In this document: positions 116-10,812 of the stretch, piece by piece
How positions within the stretch are numbered: position 1 is the stretch's first letter
Layout of the letters: the number at the start of each line of letters is the position of its first letter
Translations under genes and position numbers: made by a program
The notes under the pieces: model-generated
Told to the model about the DNA's origin: nothing
Databases searched by the model: none
Seen by the model: the letters and a program-made list of their open reading frames with translations, nothing else
DNA from: Armatimonadota bacterium
Lineage (GTDB): Bacteria > Sysuimicrobiota > Sysuimicrobiia > Sysuimicrobiales > Humicultoraceae
Length of the DNA stretch: 10,927 bases
Direction: 5' to 3'
NCBI GenBank assembly: GCA_037446215.1
Contig: JBBIJB010000073.1
Coordinates: forward strand, 1 to 10,927

Positions 116-661
116 TTGCCCCTGGCAGATGATGTCGCCGAGGTTCTGATCCCGGAGGAGGCCCTCCAGGGTCGAATCCGGGAGCTGGGAGAGCAGATCT
201 CGCACGAGTACGACGGCAAGGAACCTCTTCTGGTAGGCATCCTGACGGGTGCCTTCGTGTTTCTCTCCGACCTGCTGCGCTACGTGAAGATCCCCTGCCA
301 CGTGGACTTCATGGCCACCGCTTCCTACGGCGGCGGGACCGAGAGCAGCGGCATCGTCAGGATCCTCAAGGACCTCAACCAGACGATCGAAGGACGCCAT
401 GTCCTGATCGTCGAGGACATCATCGACACCGGACTCACCATGGACTACCTGCTGGAAACGCTCAAGGCCCGTTATCCGGCCTCGTTACGCGTCTGTGCCC
501 TCCTGGACAAGCGCCCCCGCCGCCGCCGCGAGGTCCCGATCGACTTCCCGGGCTTCGAGATCCCGGACAAGTTCGTGATCGGGTACGGCCTCGACTACGA
601 CGGCCGGTACCGCAACCTGCCGTTCATCGGCGTGCTGAAACCAGAGCTGTACGGCGCGTGA
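116..661 (+). CDS. hpt: hypoxanthine(-guanine) phosphoribosyltransferase
   Basis: 181 aa, TTG start. Has the type I PRT PRPP-binding loop VLIVEDIIDTGLT, the SYGGGTESSG flexible loop and the C-terminal FVIGYGLDYDGRYRNLP signature. Confidence 0.97.
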   Translation: MPLADDVAEVLIPEEALQGRIRELGEQISHEYDGKEPLLVGILTGAFVFLSDLLRYVKIPCHVDFMATASYGGGTESSGIVRILKDLNQTIEGRHVLIVEDIIDTGLTMDYLLETLKARYPASLRVCALLDKRPRRRREVPIDFPGFEIPDKFVIGYGLDYDGRYRNLPFIGVLKPELYGA

Positions 662-704
662 TCAGCATGCGTGGAGAGCTCCACCCCGGGAGAGGTGAGC
701 GCCC

Positions 705-1919
705 GTGAGCAGAGTGATGCAACCGACTGAGGTCCGGCGCCCTCCCGACGTCGAGCGGGGAGGCGAGCTGTTGGGGCTGGGCCGGCGGGTCAGGCGCACC
801 TACAGTTTCGACGACATAGCCCTGGCACCGGCCGCCTCGACCCTCGACCCGGACGACGTGGACTGCTCGTGGCAGGTCGGCTCCCACCTCTTCAGGCTCC
901 CCTTCGTGGCCTCGGCGATGGACAGCGTGGTGGACGTGAGGACCGCGGCGGCGCTCGGCACCCTGGGCGGCCTTGCGGTCCTGAACCTCGAAGGCCTCCA
1001 GACCCGCTACGCCGATCCCGAGGAGCCCCTCTCGGCGATCGCCGCGGCAGACCCCGATGCCGTTGTTGCGCTGCTGCAGCGCCTCTACGGCGCCCCGATC
1101 AGGGACGAGTTGGTTGCTGCCCGCATCGGCGCGATCAAGGCTTCCGGCGAAGCCGCCGCGGTCTCGGTGACGCCCGCCGGGGCAGCGCGCCTGGCCGCCC
1201 TCGCAGAGGAGGCGGGCGCCGACATCCTGCTCGTTCAGTCGACCGTTGTGACGGAGGAGCACCGCTCCGCCGGGGGGAGGAGGCTCTCCCTACGAGAACT
1301 GACCTCGGCCTCGCGGCTGCCCGTGATGGCCGGGAACTGCGTGGGCTACGCGCCCGCCCTCCGGCTGCTGGAATCCGGGGTGGCCGCGCTCTTCGTGGGG
1401 GTCGGGCCCGGCGCGGCGTGCACCAGCAGGAGGGTGCTTGGGATCGGCGTGCCGCAGGCAACCGCGATCTGCGACGTTGCGGCGGCACGCGACGAGTTCC
1501 AAAGGCGCACCGGAAGGTACGTCCCGATCGCGGCGGACGGCGGCATAGCCACGGGCGGGGAGGTAGCGAAGGCGATCGCGTGCGGGGCGGACGCGGTGAT
1601 GCTGGGTTCGGCGCTCGCCCGCGCCGCCGAGGCCCCGGGCCGCGGCTACCACTGGGGGATGGCCGCGCCGCACGCGTTCCTGCCGCGGGGCACCAGGATA
1701 AGGGTGGGCTCGACCGGAACGCTTCGGCAGATAGTGCTGGGCCCGGCCACCGTCGACGACGGCACCCACAACCTGGCGCTGGCGCTTCGCACAGCGATGG
1801 GGCTGTGCGGGGCGGGGACGATACGCGAGATGCACGCCGCCGAGCTCGTGCTGGCGCCCGCCCTGCAATCCGAGGGGAAGGCCGTCCAGTTCAGCCAGCG
1901 GGTGGGGCAGGGGCGCTGA
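705..1919 (+). CDS. guaB3: IMP dehydrogenase family protein, GuaB3 type (no CBS/Bateman domain)
   Basis: 404 aa, GTG start after SD GAGAGGTGA (690-698), with an alternative ATG at 717. Motifs: [32 protein letters not shown] (GuaB3-typical), catalytic loop [11 protein letters not shown] (Cys at 1419-1421), [24 protein letters not shown]. Confidence 0.92.
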
Positions 1920-1921
1920 CC

Positions 1922-3469
1922 GTGGCCAGACCCCAGGCGGGCGCGCGGCCCGTGGTCGTCCTCGACTTCGGAGCGCAGTACGCCCAGCTGATAGCGCGTC
2001 GGATCCGCGAGAGCCGCGTATACAGCGTGATCCTTCCCTTCGACACGCCCCTGCGGGAGTTGCTCGCGCAAGACCCCCTGGGGATCGTACTGTCCGGAGG
2101 CCCGGCAAGCGTCTACGAGCCCGGCGCCCCTCAAGCCGACCCGGCGCTGTTCGAAGCCGGGATTCCGGTGCTTGGGATATGCTATGGAATGCAGTTGATG
2201 GCTCAGGCGATGGGAGGCACCACCGGGGCCTCGGGCCACCGCGAGTACGGCCGCACCCGTCTCTTCGTCACCGACGGCGGCGACCTGTTCTCGGGGCTGG
2301 AGCCCCGCCTCATCTGCTGGATGAGCCACGGCGACTCGGTCGGAGAGCTTCCCCCGGGGTTCGATGTCCTCGCCCACACCGACCGTAACCCGGTGGCCGC
2401 GATCGCGGACCGCTCGCGCCGGCTCTACGGGCTGCAGTTCCACCCGGAGGTCTCGCACACTCCCTGGGGGATCGAGGTCCTGCGCAACTTCCTCTACGGG
2501 GTGTGCGGCTGCGAGCCCGCCTGGACCATGGCCTCGTTCATCGACAAGAGCGTCGGCGCGATCCGAGGGCAGGTGGGAGGCGGCCGGGCGGTGTGCGGGC
2601 TGTCGGGCGGCGTCGACTCGGCGACCGCGGCGGCGCTGGTGCACCGCGCCATAGGAGATCAGCTTACCTGCATCTTCGTCGACCACGGGCTGCTGCGGAA
2701 GGACGAGCCCGAACAGGTCGTGGCCACCTTCAAGGATACCTTCCAGGTGCCGCTGGTGCACGTCGACGCCCGCACGCGGTTCCTGGGGAGGCTCGCCGGC
2801 GTCACCGACCCCGAGCAGAAGCGTAAGGCGATAGGCGCGGAGTTCGTGCGGGTCTTCGAGGAGGAGGCCCAGCGGCTGGGCGAGGTCGAGTTCCTGGTGC
2901 AGGGGACGCTCTACCCGGACGTGATCGAGAGCGGAACGCGCACCGCCTCCCGGATAAAGACCCACCACAACGTAGGCGGCCTGCCGGAGGTGATGCGGCT
3001 GCGCCTCGTGGAGCCGTTCCGCGACCTCTTCAAGGACGAGGTCCGGGAGGTGGCACGCCATCTGGGCCTGCCCGACCGCATGGTCGTCCGCCACCCGTTC
3101 CCGGGTCCCGGGCTGGCGGTGCGGATCCTCGGCGAGGTCACCTCCGAGAGGCTGGAGCTGCTGCGCGAGGCTGATGCCATCGTGCTCGACGAGCTTCGGG
3201 AGGCCGGCCTGATGCTTGAGATCTGGCAGGCGTTCGGGGTGCTGCTTCCCGTCCACACGGTGGGGGTGATGGGCGACGCCAGGACCTACGGCCACGTGGT
3301 CGTGGTGAGGGCCGTCACCAGCGAGGACGGCATGACCGCCGACTGGGCCCGGCTGCCCGAGGGCGTGCTGGAGTCGATCGCCAGCCGCGTCACCCGCGAG
3401 GTCCCGGGGGTGACGCGGGTCGTCTACGACATAACAAGCAAGCCCCCCGCGACCATAGAGTGGGAGTAG
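1922..3469 (+). CDS. guaA: GMP synthase (glutamine-hydrolysing)
   Basis: The likely start is GTG at 1922, 2 nt after the guaB3 stop, giving 515 aa. Motifs: [15 protein letters not shown], class I GATase GICYG and FHPE, ATP-pyrophosphatase [25 protein letters not shown], and C-terminal [10 protein letters not shown]. Confidence 0.97.
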
Positions 3470-3513: not shown

Positions 3514-6500
3514 ATGGACCTTCTATCGGGACTGAACCCCCCTCAGCGCCAGGCGGTCACCCATCCCGGCGGCCCCCTGCTCATACTCGCGGGTGCGGGC
3601 TCGGGCAAGACCCGCGTTCTCACCCACCGCATCGCATACCTGATCAGAACCCGCCGGGTCTCCCCACGACGGATCCTGGCGGTCACCTTCACGAACAAGG
3701 CCGCGGGCGAGATGCGAGAGCGTGTGGGGACCCTGCTCGGAGGGCCCGTCGCGCGCGACATCTGGATCGGCACCTTCCACGCGATCTGCAGCCGCATCCT
3801 GCGCGTCGACGGCGAGCGCGTCGGAGTAGGCCCCAACTTCGTGATCTACGACGAGGAGGAGCAGCGCAAGGTGATCCGCGACTCCGCCGCACGGCTGGGG
3901 TTGGACGAGCGGCGCTACCCGCCGGCGGCGCTCCACGCGATGATAGGGCGCGCCAAGGACGAGGCGGTCGGCGCGGCCTCCTACGCGGCCCGGGCCTCCA
4001 ACTTCATGGAGGAAGCCGCGGCGCGCGTCTGGCTGCTCTACCAGGAGGAGTTGCGGAAGCGAGGGGCGCTCGACTTCGACGACCTGCTCTGCGAGACGCT
4101 GCGGCTGTTCGACGGGCACCCGGACGTGCTGCGCCACTACCAGGAACGGTTCGAGCACGTGCTGGTGGACGAGTACCAGGACACCAACCACGTCCAGTAC
4201 CTGCTGGTGCGGTCAATCGGCGGGCTGCACCGCAACGTGACAGTGGTGGGAGACGACGACCAGTGCATTGTGGCCGGTACGCCGATCCACCGTTTAGGCG
4301 GTACATCCCCCATCGAGTCCCTTGAGGAGGGGGCGGGTGTCATGGCGGCCTGCGGCGGTGGCCGCCTGGCGCCCGCGGCCTCCGCAGCGCCGCTGGAGCG
4401 CCACTACGACGGGCACGTCGTGACGGTGCGCACCCTCGGCGGCCACCGCCTCACCGCTACCCCAAACCACCTCGTCTTCGGGCGTCTCGTGCCGCGAGAG
4501 GATCTTCACTACGTCTACTTGATGCACAGGCGCGGCAAGGGCTACCGGATCGGACGTACCCGAGGCATGCGCTCCCGGCGACCCGGCGGTGTTGATTGCG
4601 GGCTTGGCCTCCGACTGAACGGCGAGGTAGCCGACCGCCTGTGGGTGATAGCGGCCACGCCGGATGAAGCAGAGGCGGCGTGTCTGGAGCAGCTCTACGC
4701 CTTCACACACGGCATACCCACCACGGTATTCCACGTGCGCGGGCGGAGGATGCAGATGTCTCAGCATCACGTCGACCGGGTCTTCGGCGGGATCGACACC
4801 GAGGCCCGCGCCCACTGCCTGCTCGCGGAGCTCGGTATGCTTCCCGAGTACCCTCACCTTCGCGCGGGTGCCGTGGTCAGGGGTCAGAGCGCGCGACGGC
4901 TCGTGCACTTCACTATGTTTGGTGATCGCAGGGTCTACCTCAACCGTCCGTGGGCCGATCACCGCATCCAGCTCGTGACCTCGGGAGCGGGGACACGCGC
5001 CCGGGTGAACGAGCACTACCAGACACGGGAGAGCCGCGCGACGGTCTGGCGTGTCGAGACCGCCCGCAGGGACTACGATACGGGTTGGCACATGGCCCGC
5101 CACCTCGCCGCCCTCGTGGAGGGCGAGCCCGTACTTCGGGCGTGCGTGGTCGGGCCGGAGCGGCGCTCCGCCGGATCAGCACCGAGGTACCGGCCCGTGC
5201 ATCAGGTTCTGCCCATTGGCCATCTCCACGAAGGGATGATGCTGGCCGTTGTCCGCGACGGACGCGTCGTCGAGGACGAGGTGGTCTCGCGGGTCATGGA
5301 GCCCTACAGCGGACCAGTGTACGACTTAGACGTTCGGGATCTCCGCACATACATCGCCGGCGGCGTGCTAGTTCACAACTCGATCTACCGGTGGCGAGGG
5401 GCCGACGTCCGCAACATCCTGGAGTTCGAGCGCGACTACCCCGACGCCGCCGTGGTCACCCTGGCCCAGAACTACCGCTCGACCCGCAACATCCTGGACG
5501 CGGCCAGCGCCGTCATCAAGAACAACCCGCACAGGCATGCCAAGGAGCTGTGGACGGGAAACGAGGAGGGCGCCCCCGTCCTGGTCTACGAGGCGGCAGA
5601 CGGCTCGGAAGAGGCGCGCTTCGTGGTCGAGCAGGTGAAGGAGACGGCCGCCGGGGGACTGCGCTTGCGGGAGATGGCGGTTCTCTATCGGACCAACGCG
5701 CAGTCGCGCCTCCTCGAGGAGGAGTGCCTGAGGGCGGGCGTGCCCTACCAGATCGTAGGCGGCGTCCGCTTCTACGAGCGCAAGGAGATAAAGGACCTGC
5801 TCGCGTACCTGCGCCTGGCCGTGGCGCCCGAGGACGAGGCGAGCCTGCGCAGGGCGGTGGCCGCGCCCCGGAGGGGAATTGGAGAGATAACCCTCGCGCG
5901 CCTGGCCTCCTATGCCGCGGCGGCCGGGTGCGGGTTGCTGGAGGCGATGCGAAGGCCGGAGGCGCTGGAGGGGCACTCGCGGGGCGCCTCCGGCGCGGTC
6001 GCCGAGTTCGTAGGCATCGTCGACGGCCTCACCGAGCAGGCCGGGTCGCTCCCGGCGAGCCAGGTGATAGCGAGGGCGATCTCACAGACCGGCTACGGCG
6101 CCATGCTCGAGGCGGAGGGCACCGAGGAGGCGTTGGGCCGGCTCGAGAATCTCCGAGAGCTCGCCAGCGTAGCGCGCGAGGTGGAAGAGTCCACCGGCGA
6201 GCCGCACCTCGCCGCCTTCCTGCAGCATCTCGCGCTGGTCTCCGACGTCGACACCTACAGAGACGATCTCGACCAGTTGACCCTGATGACGCTGCACAGC
6301 GCCAAGGGGCTCGAGTTCCAGGCCGTCTTCTTCACCGGGCTCGAGGAGGGGCTCTGCCCGCATGCGAGGGCGATGGAGGAGGAGGGGGGGCTCGAGGAGG
6401 AGAGGCGGCTCTGCTACGTGGGCTTCACCAGGGCGAAGACGCGCCTGCTTCTGACGCACGCCCTCGTGCGCGCGACCTTCGGCAGCCCGATGATGACGGT

Positions 6501-6822
6501 GCGCTCGCGGTTCCTGGACGAGATCCCGCAGGAACGGGTGGCGGAGGCGAGGAGCAGCCGCGCGCGCGCCTGGGATGCGGCCCTTCCGTGGCGCGGTCGC
6601 CCCGGGTGGGCTTCCGCCGCTACGGGCTCGGGAGGGGGCGGCACCGGGCCTGCGTCGCCGCTGCCGGACCTCGAGGTCGGCGACCGGGTCAGGCATGCCA
6701 GGTTCGGGGACGGAGAGGTGCTCGAGGTCGAGGGCGAGGGGGGCGGCGCAATAGTCACCGTGAGGTTCGCCGGTGCCGTCAAGCGGCTGGCCCTCGGCTA
6801 CGCACCGATGGAGCGCCTGTAG
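3514..6822 (+). CDS. pcrA: ATP-dependent DNA helicase PcrA/UvrD (SF1A), intein-containing precursor of 1102 aa (730 aa after splicing)
   Basis: Q motif LNPPQ, Walker A LAGAGSGKT, Ia VTFTNKAA, II LVDEYQDTN, III VGDDDQ/SIYRWRGA (split by the intein), IV LAQNYRST, LYRTNAQSR, V LMTLHSAKGLEF, VI EEERRLCYVGFTRA. A Gly-rich linker precedes the C-terminal Tudor-like domain VGDRVRHARFGDGEV. Confidence 0.96.
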   Translation: MDLLSGLNPPQRQAVTHPGGPLLILAGAGSGKTRVLTHRIAYLIRTRRVSPRRILAVTFTNKAAGEMRERVGTLLGGPVARDIWIGTFHAICSRILRVDGERVGVGPNFVIYDEEEQRKVIRDSAARLGLDERRYPPAALHAMIGRAKDEAVGAASYAARASNFMEEAAARVWLLYQEELRKRGALDFDDLLCETLRLFDGHPDVLRHYQERFEHVLVDEYQDTNHVQYLLVRSIGGLHRNVTVVGDDDQCIVAGTPIHRLGGTSPIESLEEGAGVMAACGGGRLAPAASAAPLERHYDGHVVTVRTLGGHRLTATPNHLVFGRLVPREDLHYVYLMHRRGKGYRIGRTRGMRSRRPGGVDCGLGLRLNGEVADRLWVIAATPDEAEAACLEQLYAFTHGIPTTVFHVRGRRMQMSQHHVDRVFGGIDTEARAHCLLAELGMLPEYPHLRAGAVVRGQSARRLVHFTMFGDRRVYLNRPWADHRIQLVTSGAGTRARVNEHYQTRESRATVWRVETARRDYDTGWHMARHLAALVEGEPVLRACVVGPERRSAGSAPRYRPVHQVLPIGHLHEGMMLAVVRDGRVVEDEVVSRVMEPYSGPVYDLDVRDLRTYIAGGVLVHNSIYRWRGADVRNILEFERDYPDAAVVTLAQNYRSTRNILDAASAVIKNNPHRHAKELWTGNEEGAPVLVYEAADGSEEARFVVEQVKETAAGGLRLREMAVLYRTNAQSRLLEEECLRAGVPYQIVGGVRFYERKEIKDLLAYLRLAVAPEDEASLRRAVAAPRRGIGEITLARLASYAAAAGCGLLEAMRRPEALEGHSRGASGAVAEFVGIVDGLTEQAGSLPASQVIARAISQTGYGAMLEAEGTEEALGRLENLRELASVAREVEESTGEPHLAAFLQHLALVSDVDTYRDDLDQLTLMTLHSAKGLEFQAVFFTGLEEGLCPHARAMEEEGGLEEERRLCYVGFTRAKTRLLLTHALVRATFGSPMMTVRSRFLDEIPQERVAEARSSRARAWDAALPWRGRPGWASAATGSGGGGTGPASPLPDLEVGDRVRHARFGDGEVLEVEGEGGGAIVTVRFAGAVKRLALGYAPMERL
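4264..5379 (+). mobile_element. intein (1116 bp, 372 aa) in PcrA motif III, carrying a ~240-aa internal domain with a GIY-YIG-like motif
   Basis: In-frame insertion between VGDDDQ and SIYRWRG. Block A CIVAGTPI starts with Cys1 and block B is LTATPNHLVF (TxxH at 4459-4470). Block F is GPVYDLDV and block G is GVLVHN followed by Ser+1 (5380-5382). Removing it restores the canonical motif GDDDQSIYRWRGA. Confidence 0.96.
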
Positions 6823-6931: not shown

Positions 6932-8677
6932 ATGAGCACTGTGCTGTCACGGACTCTGGTGGCGGTGATCTGCGCGGCGCTCCTCGTTACGGCTCCGGTC
7001 GCGGCCCAGCAGCCTGCTCGGGGCCTCCCGGGCATTCCGAAGCCCATGATCGTGGAGGCCGACGAGGCCGGTCGCTACGGCGGGACCTTCGTCGTTACCT
7101 CCATCTCGGATCCACGGACCTTCAACTCGATAGTGGCCCAGGAAACCTCTTCCACGGTTCCGCTCGGATACATGTTCGAGGGACTGGTCGAGACGAACCG
7201 CGTGACCACGGAGGTAGAGCCCTCGATCGCCGAGTCGTGGACCGTGACCAAGGACGGCAAGACCTGGCGGTTCAAGATGCGGCAGGGGATCAAGTGGTTC
7301 GATGGGAAGCCGGTTACCGCCGACGACGTGGTGTTCACGCTCGACGCCGCCTTCACGCCGGGGGTGCAGTCGAGCCTGCGCGACGTGCTGACCATAGCGG
7401 GCAAGAAGATCGGCTACCGCAAGGTCGACGACTACACCATGGAGTTCAAGACCGACGAGCCGTTCGGGCCGTTCCTGCGGCAGATCGGCTTCGCTGTCGT
7501 GCCCAGGCACAAGCTGGAGGACTCCCTCAAGAAGGGCGCCGCCGAGTTCAACAGGACGTGGGGCGTGAACACCCCGCCGCGCGAGCTCGTGGGCAGCGGC
7601 CCGTTCGTGATGCACGCCTACACCCCCGGCCAGCGGATCCTCTACGTGCGCAACTCCAACTACTGGAAGGTGGACAAGAGCGGGCAGCGGCTCCCCTACC
7701 TGGCGCGGCTCGTGGTCGAGATCGTGCCCAACCTCGACGCCGCGCGCCTGAAGTTCATGGCCAAGGAGACCGACTCCTACCCCGCGAGACCGCGGGAGTA
7801 CGCCGAGCTGCGCGCCCAGCAGAAGGCGGGCGACTTCCAGATCTTCGACGGCCCGCCCACCTTCTCGACCGAGTTCCTGGTCTTAAACCAGAACCCCGCC
7901 GGGATAAGGCCGCCGAAGCTCACTTGGTTCCAGAACGCGAAGTTCCGACAGGCGATCAGCCACGCGGTGGATCGCGACGCGATAGTCCGCCAGGTCTACG
8001 CAGGGCGCGCAACCGCTCAGTGGGGTCCGACCAGCCCGGCCAACAAGTTCTTCTTCAACCCGAACTTGCGCAAGTACCCCTACGACCTGGCGCGGGCCGA
8101 GGCCCTGCTTCGGGAGGCCGGGTTCACCAAGGGGGCCGACGGCCAGCTGCGCGACTCCGCGGGCAACCTGGTGGAGTTCACGATCGCGACGAACGCGGGC
8201 AACACCGACCGGGAGGCGATCGGGAACCTGGTGCGCCAGGACCTGACCAAGCTGGGCATGAAGGTCACGTTCGCCCCTGAGGCTTTCAACACGCTCGTCG
8301 GCAAGCTGACCGGCACCTTCAACTGGGAGGCGATCATCATCGGCCTGACCGGGGGGCTCGACCCGCACGGCGGGCAGAACGTCTGGAAGTCCGGCGGCTC
8401 GCTGCACATGTGGTGGCCCAAGCAGGAGAGCCCGGCCACCGACTGGGAGGCGGAGATCGACAGGATATTCGACCAGGCGGCCACAACCGTCGACCAGAAC
8501 CGGCGCAAGCAGCTCTACAATCGCTGGCAGGAGATCGTCTCAGAACAGGTGCCGATGGTGTACTTCACGACCACGCTGACCCAGCCGGCGTTTCGCAACA
8601 CGCTCTCCAACTTCAGCAACGCGCCGCTCGCCTTCTACGACATAGAGACGATCTACTACAAGACCCCCTACAGGTGA
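6932..8677 (+). CDS. ABC transporter substrate-binding protein, family 5 (OppA/DppA/AppA/NikA-like)
   Basis: 581 aa with an N-terminal signal peptide ending VAA|QQ. Family 5 signatures: SDPRTFN, FEGLVE, PSIAESW, KWFDGKPVTADDVVFT, VGSGPF, RNSNYW, FRQAISHAVDR, YDLARAEALLREAG. The substrate cannot be determined from sequence. Confidence 0.93.
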   Translation: MSTVLSRTLVAVICAALLVTAPVAAQQPARGLPGIPKPMIVEADEAGRYGGTFVVTSISDPRTFNSIVAQETSSTVPLGYMFEGLVETNRVTTEVEPSIAESWTVTKDGKTWRFKMRQGIKWFDGKPVTADDVVFTLDAAFTPGVQSSLRDVLTIAGKKIGYRKVDDYTMEFKTDEPFGPFLRQIGFAVVPRHKLEDSLKKGAAEFNRTWGVNTPPRELVGSGPFVMHAYTPGQRILYVRNSNYWKVDKSGQRLPYLARLVVEIVPNLDAARLKFMAKETDSYPARPREYAELRAQQKAGDFQIFDGPPTFSTEFLVLNQNPAGIRPPKLTWFQNAKFRQAISHAVDRDAIVRQVYAGRATAQWGPTSPANKFFFNPNLRKYPYDLARAEALLREAGFTKGADGQLRDSAGNLVEFTIATNAGNTDREAIGNLVRQDLTKLGMKVTFAPEAFNTLVGKLTGTFNWEAIIIGLTGGLDPHGGQNVWKSGGSLHMWWPKQESPATDWEAEIDRIFDQAATTVDQNRRKQLYNRWQEIVSEQVPMVYFTTTLTQPAFRNTLSNFSNAPLAFYDIETIYYKTPYR

Positions 8678-8684
8678 TCTGCCG

Positions 8685-8714
8685 CGGGGGAGGGGCGTAA
8701 TCGCCCCTCCCCCG
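8685..8714 (+). promoter_or_regulatory. 13-bp perfect stem-loop between the binding-protein and permease genes (mRNA stabiliser or partial terminator)
   Basis: CGGGGGAGGGGCG-TAAT-CGCCCCTCCCCCG, 7 nt after the stop codon, with no U-tract. Confidence 0.75.
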
Positions 8715-8724
8715 GCCTCCTCCG

Positions 8725-9690
8725 ATGCTGCGCCACATCCTGCGCCGGCTCTTCCACCTGATCCCGATGATGCTGGGGATAACCCTCTTCTCGTTCGCCA
8801 TCATCCAGCTCTCGCCCGGCGACTACCTGGCGGAGATCCGCATGAACCCGGTGGTCAGCCAGGAAACCGTGGACCAGATGCGGGCCAACTTCGGACTCGA
8901 CCAGCCGCTGCACATCCAGTACCTGAAGTGGCTCTGGAACGCTCTGCGTCTCGACTTCGGATACTCATTCGCGTTCCAGGTGCCGGTCATGTGGCTGATA
9001 GGGTCGCGCCTACTCAACTCGCTGCTGCTGAACATCGTGGCCTTCGCCGTCGCGTGGGCGCTCGCGATTCCGTTGGGCATACACGCCGCCCGCAGGCAGT
9101 ATTCCTGGTCCGACAACTCGCTCTCATTCGCCGCTTACGTCGGCATCTCCACCCCCACGTTCTTCTCGGGGCTGTTCCTCCTGTACATCGCCTACAGGAC
9201 CGGCTGGCTGCCGATAGGCGGCATGACCAGCATCGAGCATGAGTTCCTCCCGTGGTGGGGTAAGGTGCTCGACGTGGCCCACCACATGGTGCTCCCGGTC
9301 CTGGTGCTCGGCGTGTTGAGCGTGGCGGGGCTGATGCGCCAGATGCGGGCCAACCTGCTCGAGGTGATGCGCCAGGACTACGTCAGGACGGCCCGCAGCA
9401 AGGGCCTTGCCGAGAACGTGGTGGTCAACAGACACGCGGTCAGGAACGCGATCAACCCGCTCGTCACGATCTTCGGGTTCAGCCTGGGCGGGCTGCTCGG
9501 CGGTTCGGCGATCCTGGAGAACGTGATGGGCTGGCCCGGAATAGGGAGGCTGATCGTCGAGGCGACGATCCAGAAGGATCTCTACGTGGTGATGGCGTCC
9601 CTAGTCATCGGCTCGGTCACTCTGGTGGTCGGCAACCTGATAGCGGACGTGCTGCTGGTGCTGACCGACCCGAGGATAAGGTACGATTAG
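8725..9690 (+). CDS. peptide/nickel ABC transporter permease (OppB/DppB/AppB-like)
   Basis: 321 aa with about 6 hydrophobic segments. Motifs: HILRRL, SPGD, FGLDQPLHIQYLKWL, DFGYS, EAA loop DYVRTARSKGL, RHAVRNA, WPGIGRL, and C-terminal DPRIRY. Confidence 0.94.
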   Translation: MLRHILRRLFHLIPMMLGITLFSFAIIQLSPGDYLAEIRMNPVVSQETVDQMRANFGLDQPLHIQYLKWLWNALRLDFGYSFAFQVPVMWLIGSRLLNSLLLNIVAFAVAWALAIPLGIHAARRQYSWSDNSLSFAAYVGISTPTFFSGLFLLYIAYRTGWLPIGGMTSIEHEFLPWWGKVLDVAHHMVLPVLVLGVLSVAGLMRQMRANLLEVMRQDYVRTARSKGLAENVVVNRHAVRNAINPLVTIFGFSLGGLLGGSAILENVMGWPGIGRLIVEATIQKDLYVVMASLVIGSVTLVVGNLIADVLLVLTDPRIRYD

Positions 9691-10812
9691 ATGCGCTCCC
9701 CCGGCGACCGCAGAGGCGGGGCTCCCTCGGGCGCGGGGCAGGCGCGCACGCCGGCCCAGATGGCGTGGAGGCAGCTTCGCCGCCACCGCATGGCGCTTGC
9801 CGGAGGGGCCGTCCTCATCCTCCTCTACCTGCTCGCGATCTTCGCGGAGGTGATCGCCCCGTACAGCCTGGACTACGCCGACAGGGAGAGGTTCTTCCAT
9901 CCGCCGGTGCTGCCGAGGTTTGCCGATGCCCAGGGGATCAGCCTGCGGCCGTTCGTCCACGGCACCTCGCTGGTGGATCCCGGCCTCCGGAAGTACGCGG
10001 TGGACGAGACCCAGCGGCACTACGTGAGGTTCCTGGTACGGGGCGAGCCCTACCTGCTGTTTGGCGTCTTCCCCGGCTCGATCCACCTGTTCGGGGTGGA
10101 CGAGCCGGGCCGGATCTTCCTGATGGGCACGGACCAGTCGGGCAGGGACCAGTTCAGCCGCATCCTGTACGGTTCCAGGATCTCGCTGACCATAGGGATG
10201 ATGGCCGCCGCGGTCACGATTCCCATCGGCCTGCTCTACGGCGGCATCGCCGGCTACTACGGGGGACGCGTGGACAACGTGATGATGCGGCTCTCGGAGA
10301 TCATCATCGCCTTCCCCGAGTTCTACCTCCTGCTGACGCTGAGCGCGGTGCTCCCGTCCGCTGTGGGGTGCACCACCAGGTTCTACCTCATTACGCTGAT
10401 ACTCTCGTTCATAGGGTGGGCGGGCTTCTCGCGGCTGATCAGGGGCCTGGTCCTCTCGCTGAAGGAGCGTGAGTTCGTCCTGGCCGCCAAGGCCGCGGGG
10501 CTCGACGACTTCCGAATCATCGTGCGCCACGTGCTCCCGCAGACCTCCTCGCTTGTCATAGTGGTGGTGACGCTCGGCATTCCGGGCGCGATACTGGGGG
10601 AGTCGGCGCTCTCGTTCTTCGGGTTCGGCGTGCGCGAGCCGTGCTCTTCGTGGGGCAACCTCCTCACCACGGCGTCGAACCTGCCCACGCTGATCCTGTC
10701 GCCCTGGCTGCTCTTCCCGGGGCTGTTCATCATAGCCGCGGTGGTGGCCTTCAACCTGTTCGGGGACGGTCTGCGGGACGCGCTCGACCCGCGGCACCGG
10801 ACTTCGTCCTAG
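9691..10812 (+). CDS. peptide/nickel ABC transporter permease (OppC/DppC/AppC-like)
   Basis: 373 aa, with the ATG immediately after the upstream TAG. Motifs: WRQLRRHRMA, MGTDQSGRDQFSRILYGSRISL, EAA loop EFVLAAKAAG, RHVLP, ESALSFFGFG, SWG, FNLFGDGLRDALDPR. Confidence 0.94.
   Translation: MRSPGDRRGGAPSGAGQARTPAQMAWRQLRRHRMALAGGAVLILLYLLAIFAEVIAPYSLDYADRERFFHPPVLPRFADAQGISLRPFVHGTSLVDPGLRKYAVDETQRHYVRFLVRGEPYLLFGVFPGSIHLFGVDEPGRIFLMGTDQSGRDQFSRILYGSRISLTIGMMAAAVTIPIGLLYGGIAGYYGGRVDNVMMRLSEIIIAFPEFYLLLTLSAVLPSAVGCTTRFYLITLILSFIGWAGFSRLIRGLVLSLKEREFVLAAKAAGLDDFRIIVRHVLPQTSSLVIVVVTLGIPGAILGESALSFFGFGVREPCSSWGNLLTTASNLPTLILSPWLLFPGLFIIAAVVAFNLFGDGLRDALDPRHRTSS

Follow-up and report, generated by a model that had tools for sequence, protein, structure and literature searches.

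A divergent GIY-YIG-type domain in frame within a PcrA/UvrD intein, a putative homing endonuclease

A GIY-YIG-type core inside a class-1 intein

The window analysed here (the whole stretch of 10,927 nt of contig JBBIJB010000073.1, assembly GCA_037446215.1, Armatimonadota bacterium) carries a PcrA/UvrD helicase open reading frame (ORF; 3514-6822, + strand; 1,102 aa) split by a 372-aa intein (4264-5379), and the 238-aa insert between the splicing parts of this intein contains a core (4507..4710) that very probably has a GIY-YIG-derived fold. Given that fold, it is quite likely that the core is a homing nuclease; overall, the domain is probably a divergent, unannotated branch of the GIY-YIG superfamily in a bifunctional class-1 intein, and a putative homing endonuclease. 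A preliminary description of the locus had proposed a GIY-YIG domain of the T5orf172/MUG113 kind in a mobile intein. The GIY-YIG-type domain in a mobile intein is upheld, as topology, invariant residues, the identity of structural matches and a homing footprint in phage relatives concur, whereas T5orf172/MUG113 membership is not: the Pfam models PF10544 (T5orf172) and PF13455 (MUG113) gave no match, PF10544 is without a match in the window's genome, and Atlas language-model look-alikes to these families (scores 0.81-0.82) are leads only.

The core runs beta-beta-alpha-beta-alpha (strands at intein residues 82-89 and 93-100, helix 113-120, strand 125-132, helix 135-149). The order Tyr, Gly, helix Arg, late Glu given in the preliminary description, whose quoted residues were all found in place, is conserved in an alignment of 273 core domains (from 283 profile hits, after removal of hits of ≤85 residues and of query duplicates): Tyr85 in strand 1 (4516-4518) is kept in 260, Gly97 in strand 2 in 271, Arg117 in the first helix (4612-4614) in 261 and Glu142 in the last helix (4687-4689) in 270. 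Arg95, kept in 268, occupies the place of the second-motif Tyr, giving RIG (Arg95-Ile-Gly97, 4546-4554) for YIG, and Glu121 (4624-4626; 263), Trp127 in strand 3 (270) and Pro152 (270) are also conserved. Tyr85, Arg95, Gly97, Arg117, Glu121 and Glu142 occur together in 242 of the 265 complete rows and in the window copy; the rows are related, so these counts are not independent trials. The core domain is under purifying selection matching or exceeding that on the extein, with dN/dS of 0.06-0.12 in six of nine pairs, undefined values in two, and 0.55 in G014/G022, a noisy value from few substitutions in a pair in which both copies lack Glu121. A GIY-like pattern matched once among 10,830 ORFs of the window's genome, which is weak evidence because the pattern was written from the same family.

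Four libraries indicate the GIY-YIG superfamily for the core, and all structural matches to it agree on that identity; structure-based identity to UvrC is 23-24%, and structural neighbours include the structure-specific Slx1 and At-HIGLE. Neither a six-frame pattern scan of the insert nor Pfam gave any LAGLIDADG or HNH match, bearing out the absence noted in the preliminary description. The insert matches no family in Pfam, NCBIfam or PHROGs. The window protein has no match to PF01541 (Pfam GIY-YIG, UvrC/I-TevI type) and lacks the C-terminal Asn motif, and the relatives P0231 and P0247 reach 17.2 and 12 bits against a PF01541 gathering cut-off of 22.6. A T5orf172 search over 94 genomes of the phylum matched one genome, in a translation that looked spurious, too few for a profile. 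Comparison of three single GIY-YIG or T5orf172 hits with the core yielded nothing, the best 60 of 115 rows of a PDB sequence search (alignment A2) were helicase-type and intein/HINT chains only, and whole-intein fold searches were taken up by HINT domains. Weak BFVD rows (A0A8S5NZ63, A0A6J5MBR8; E 0.05-0.1) are phage terminase proteins, in which further, more remote members of this intein type may lie.

The intein splits helicase motif III: the N-extein (3514..4263; PF00580, E 1e-85; pcrA TIGR01073) ends in GDDDQ, and the C-extein (5380..6822) opens with the +1 Ser of SIYRWRG. The N-terminal splicing region (4264..4488) holds Cys1 (4264-4266) and block B (Thr66-Pro-Asn-His69, TPNH; 4459-4470), and the C-terminal one (5197..5379) holds Asp354 of block F and His371-Asn372. 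Together with Ser+1 these are class-1 residues, and Cys1, Thr66, His69, Asp354, His371 and Asn372 are invariant across 92 aligned inteins (the window's and 91 of 119 homologues, the other 28 being missed by the junction pattern). Fold search gave a HINT fold, with solved inteins aligning to the splicing part only. By its residues and HINT fold the element is a class-1 intein, and it would be expected to splice.

Downstream of the core, a conserved GIP loop and helical extension (4711..4863) forms, with the Glu142 helix, a predicted homodimer surface (residues 135-154 and 164-177, Glu142 itself not among them). Prediction with two insert copies scored 0.57 (best control 0.00), with 100% contact agreement between runs and partner pLDDT ≥68. 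Of proteins solved as same-chain pairs, 20 of 30 reached the mark, as did 1 of 23 solved as single chains; these counts apply only roughly here, the insert having been run with an alignment built in this analysis. The pass may reflect likeness, because dimeric GIY-YIG enzymes are solved. The predicted pairing suggests a route to a double-strand break. A second alpha/beta domain (4888..5148), of ferredoxin/BMC-like arrangement, matches no family and had no usable Atlas hit; Foldseek gave weak rows for the insert to I-DmoI, I-TnaI, I-CreI variants, I-PanMI and I-PnoMI (E 0.53-0.81). This second domain is a putative DNA-recognition module. Some relatives retain only part of it and those with short inserts have none, whereas the N-terminal core is deleted less often.

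Relatives, insertion sites and derivatives

Homologue searches gave the insert 123 long-protein relatives and, at the level of 50%-identity representatives, 672 matches, of which the best 150 were examined. Labels on named relatives include Armatimonadota, Rokubacteria, Chloroflexota, Poribacteria and Clostridium thermopalmarium. The same domain is present in UvrD inteins of phi92, CampHawk/SPO1 and Vibrio phage RYC, with profile matches of 76 bits for phi92 and 48 bits for CampHawk, both at the motif III site; the insert of CampHawk is a short one, without the second domain. The patterns of the window's own insert had no match among IMG/VR contigs. Nearly all host proteins are UvrD-family helicases, and restriction of the family to helicases was rejected on finding the domain in an intein of an adenine methyltransferase in Streptococcus suis prophages.

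Insertion positions, read from junctions by eye, comprise seven distinct UvrD-type helicase positions (motif III, motif II, after QDxNx, before a DFDD motif, after FEHD, after IKHN, and the motif V region), a further two that lie two or three codons away around motif III, and a single methyltransferase position. On a quick 48-row tree the site classes are intermixed, and some genes carry two or three family inteins. The element has been retargeted to new sites several times. The first residues downstream of the methyltransferase intein (CLYGW) are also seen after motif III inteins, which suggests a jump by target resemblance.

Very long UvrD-like helicases (P0189, P0233, P0248, P0257, P0263; 1872-2536 aa) carry two or three family inteins, and P0233 and P0257 also have an ordinary LAGLIDADG intein near the P-loop. 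P0261 has two related inteins in tandem at motif III (residues ~259-818), the second Cys1 adjoining the first His-Asn. The helicase of Klebsiella phage KP13-16 (L066) has a family intein at motif III and, on its N-terminal side, a second intein of LAGLIDADG type by eye. Four intein-sized homologues (P0218, P0238, P0251, P0265) are free-standing, with a Met start and neither Cys1 nor terminal His-Asn; P0218 retains the nuclease residues, and P0238 and P0251 (Ca. Muiribacteriota) lack Tyr85, Arg117 and Glu142. To judge from their sequences, these may be domesticated, splicing-dead derivatives, for which yeast HO is a parallel.

Transfer among phages

The phi92 N-extein is matched by 134 records, 56 at ≥95% and 78 at 60-80% identity, and the domain is ≥95% identical to that of phi92 in 38 records (duplicates included throughout); the phage comparison set comprised 11 loci. 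In Phapecoctavirus DIJ07P2 the N-extein is 98.4% identical to that of the empty DIJ07P1 and 74.1% identical to that of phi92, and the intein differs from the phi92 intein at 4 of 1,038 nt. Upstream, 174 of 176 informative sites are of recipient type (−4 recipient, −1 donor); downstream, all 81 sites from +1 to +273 are of donor type, and recipient type resumes from +276. The crossover lies ≤3 nt from the insertion site, in 74%-identical DNA. Insertion with flank co-conversion of this kind is the homing pattern described in PMC2988022. An assembly chimera is unlikely to judge from the assembled sequence, in which no exact match within the final 60 upstream nt is longer than 11 nt.

Between two occupied and two empty Justusliebigvirus alleles, fixed differences are confined to −27 to −1 (8 sites) and +1 to +51 (15 sites). 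Of 61 S. suis prophage records 15 carry the intein, and among 13 occupied alleles the mean intein difference is 0.75%, compared with 2.5-4.6% in upstream and 7-11% in downstream flanks. One S. suis allele changes background at +6, so that tract direction is not uniform, and a general downstream-cut rule based on DIJ07P2 was dropped for this reason. Transfer within the family is recent and site-precise; the footprint does not identify the cutting domain.

In the phi92 group (L033, L034, L065, L082) the +1 codon is Cys in all occupied alleles and Ser in the five empty alleles examined, and the co-converted flank thus alters helicase motif III residues. The GenBank intein feature of Bas62 (L034, 1375-2415) spans 347 codons, whereas the junction reading gives 346 with Cys at +1; for CampHawk, paper and record conflict over the intein end (N576 versus N566).

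Distribution within the host phylum

The domain is present in 14 of 94 genomes of the phylum, in 8 of 31 genera and at one locus each, the other 80 genomes having no match; G001 and G024 are also intein-bearing, with the domain in a gap or off the contig. Among 41 pcrA genes, the codon interrupted in the window is occupied in 13 and empty in 28, and this state changes at least 11 times on the 41-row extein tree. Starred occupied/empty sister groups are G065/G066, G059/G063, G021/G013 and G014+G022/G041, and the sister pair G006/G005 has support of 95/71. G037 and G065, of one genus, have an extein dS of 0.53 and a saturated intein dS, a contrast that suggests separate acquisitions. The copies in G002, G016, G017 and G043 have suffered deletions or lost conserved residues, consistent with the phase of decay in a homing cycle. 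Several empty alleles of the phylum (L025-L030, some of L098-L117) have Ala at +1, incompatible with splicing, and none of those examined is intein-bearing.

Upstream of pcrA (window 116-3469) lie an hpt-like phosphoribosyltransferase gene, an IMPDH-family gene and a GMP synthase gene, and downstream (6932-10812) an oligopeptide ABC transporter. These flanks gave no sign of a mobile region, and GC content is flat over the intein.

Proposed mechanism and alternatives

In the proposed cycle the precursor would splice via Cys1, His371-Asn372 and Ser+1 to restore PcrA, and the freed intein would bind the intein-free pcrA motif III, probably through the second alpha/beta domain and basic loops. Catalysis and residue roles are assigned by analogy: a one-metal GIY-YIG site would cut with Tyr85 as general base and Glu142 as metal ligand, and Arg117 and Arg95, the latter replacing the second Tyr (Lys in Hpy188I), would hold the phosphate. 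Dimerisation through the Glu142 helix and the one after it may allow a double-strand break; on the models, a homodimeric double-strand cutter and a monomeric nickase are about evenly balanced. Recombinational repair from the intein allele would then copy the intein and some flank (the footprint coming from phage relatives rather than the window genome), and copies would decay after fixation. The element itself has moved to new target sites several times.

The broadest form of this proposal is a widespread, hitherto unclassified class of in-frame, homodimeric GIY-YIG intein homing endonuclease with an RIG site that is now homing among coliphage genera, has been retargeted to at least nine UvrD-family helicase positions, has jumped to a DNA methyltransferase with motif III-like codons downstream and has left free-standing, splicing-dead derivatives; it is advanced tentatively, at slightly less than an even chance. 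The fold-search check proposed in the preliminary description came out divided, in that matches to the core were all GIY-YIG but Foldseek of the insert against PDB returned nothing at E≤0.001. Glu142 falls opposite the Glu of UvrC EALILE in alignment, with local hhalign scores against 26 UvrC N-terminal domains of the phylum not exceeding those of 60 column-shuffled decoys, and none of the fold and profile scores was by itself above a confident threshold. A quick intein tree roughly splits the same two families as the extein tree, counter to separate acquisitions, and bacterial sister pairs gave no local co-conversion tract; an asymmetry in G065/G066 (70/750 upstream, 24/700 downstream) spans >700 nt.

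A GIY-YIG-type nuclease might instead be kept for the benefit of host or phage, as a structure-specific enzyme like Slx1 set free next to a UvrD helicase or as an anti-phage weapon cutting the helicase gene of co-infecting phages, and spread by ordinary recombination and selection. The presence of Slx1 and At-HIGLE among structural neighbours, the near-confinement to UvrD-family helicases and the strength of purifying selection would suit such a role, which is nevertheless unlikely: most genomes of the phylum lack the domain and sister species differ, copies decay (the four named above, G014 and G022), the element also occurs in a methyltransferase, and the DIJ07P2 crossover fits a nearby break better than random recombination. 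Inter-phage competition does not conflict with homing and could act in addition to it. That the core is another or new nuclease or DNA-binding fold sharing the three-strand, two-helix arrangement by convergence is improbable in view of the agreement of the four libraries, the invariant Tyr, Gly, Arg and Glu, whose order and secondary-structure positions are those expected, and the identity to UvrC.

Mobility might also be owed to another enzyme, the second domain being a LAGLIDADG remnant or active half, or a nuclease lying in another frame. The weak Foldseek rows to I-DmoI and other LAGLIDADG-type enzymes point this way, as does a 269-codon antisense ORF overlapping the insert, and endonucleases encoded antisense or out of frame are on record, for example from some phage and dnaX inteins. 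This is very unlikely, however, as the LAGLIDADG motif is absent from every frame and the spreading S. suis intein has only ~80 residues after the core, not enough to accommodate the second domain. The idea of a nuclease concealed in an antisense or shifted frame was rejected: Pfam matches none of the ORFs in those frames, and the antisense frame is interrupted by stops in 11 of the 13 bacterial inteins and is just as open in control extein DNA. It is extremely unlikely that the domain is a relic retained only for folding or splicing of the intein, although some inteins need their endonuclease domain for splicing (PMC7765530) and the core is less often deleted than the second domain; conservation centres on polar catalytic-type residues, the splicing domain is less conserved than this one, and recent transfers are observed.

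Significance and comparison with known systems

No account of a continuous intein with an in-frame GIY-YIG domain came up in the searchable literature, outside which lie subscription journals, InBase and supplements (those of PMC4760082 and of the 2025 preprint may classify UvrD inteins). PMC3868849 notes the CampHawk intein with its nuclease type unnamed. PMC1564403 (2006) places GIY-YIG in group I introns rather than inteins and states that the C-terminal Asn motif can be absent in the superfamily. PMC2677866 (Dassa et al. 2009) describes GIY-YIG as not known in inteins and reports free-standing ORFs between split-intein halves. For 784 actinophage inteins, bioRxiv 2025.01.02.630785 lists LAGLIDADG, HNH, Vsr-like and Endo VII-like endonucleases, and one of its sentences counts GIY-YIG as intein-associated, citing four papers including that of 2009. 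The main text of PMC4760082 (Novikova et al. 2016) has 16 UvrD inteins and does not mention GIY, and PMC10448857 reports that T5orf172 genes act as phage homing endonucleases; bioRxiv 2026.09.14.751524, PMC3384342, PMC12923530, PMC5874633 and PMC3267165 were also covered. PMC11162368 (2024) calls inteins unreported in coliphages, and BASEL records annotate the family's UvrD intein.

The window element is a known kind of mobile element with a nuclease superfamily not documented in that position. If the assignment is true, it adds a superfamily to the few nucleases of continuous inteins (the in-frame LAGLIDADG and HNH types and the out-of-frame Vsr-like and Endo VII-like ones), supports repeated independent nuclease recruitment by splicing domains, and explains an unannotated insert that UvrD inteins carry by the hundred, among them the inteins of SPO1 and phi92, both classic phages. 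Natural variants at many targets, with exchangeable C-terminal parts, offer a series for the study of target change and a possible source of long-site nucleases. With intein-plus (Bas60/Bas62) and intein-free (Bas61) alleles among related E. coli K-12 phages, the proposal is testable by a cross.

The window family shares with the T5orf172/MUG113 motif Y-V-Y in the first strand and a basic residue before IG, and differs in its own NQE-AD-W and YGIP motifs. GIY-YIG homing endonucleases of group I introns and of free-standing phage genes (I-TevI, I-TevII, T4 Seg proteins) share with the window core the predicted catalytic order Tyr, Gly, Arg, Glu, and with the window intein a variable, putatively DNA-binding part after the nuclease domain and spread with flank co-conversion. 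The window domain differs from them in lying in frame within a continuous intein, in reading RIG rather than YIG, and in lacking the C-terminal Asn motif and any NUMOD, zinc-finger or HTH match; it is a predicted homodimer, whereas I-TevI binds as a monomer. No precedent for Arg at the second-motif Tyr was met in the literature searched, the basic precedent being the Lys of KIG in Hpy188I (PMC3045582). That protein is not among the structural matches to the core, and the likeness is drawn by description: its first Tyr is the general base and its homodimer involves the glutamate helix region, as proposed here. It differs in being a free restriction enzyme that recognises a 5-bp site and whose Glu helix is domain-swapped.

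Bifunctional class-1 inteins with a LAGLIDADG or HNH domain (PI-SceI, PI-PfuI, PI-PkoII, the Tli and Pho VMA inteins) share the HINT fold, Cys1, block B, His-Asn and Ser or Cys at +1 with the window intein. They are also like it in having an endonuclease between blocks B and F, a conserved ATPase motif as target, patchy spread and decay, and the window insert departs from them in belonging to another nuclease superfamily. Records consulted for the annotated but unclassified UvrD inteins of SPO1, CampHawk, phi92 and BASEL phages Bas60 and Bas62 name no endonuclease type; by profile these inteins belong to the same family, and they sit at motif III.
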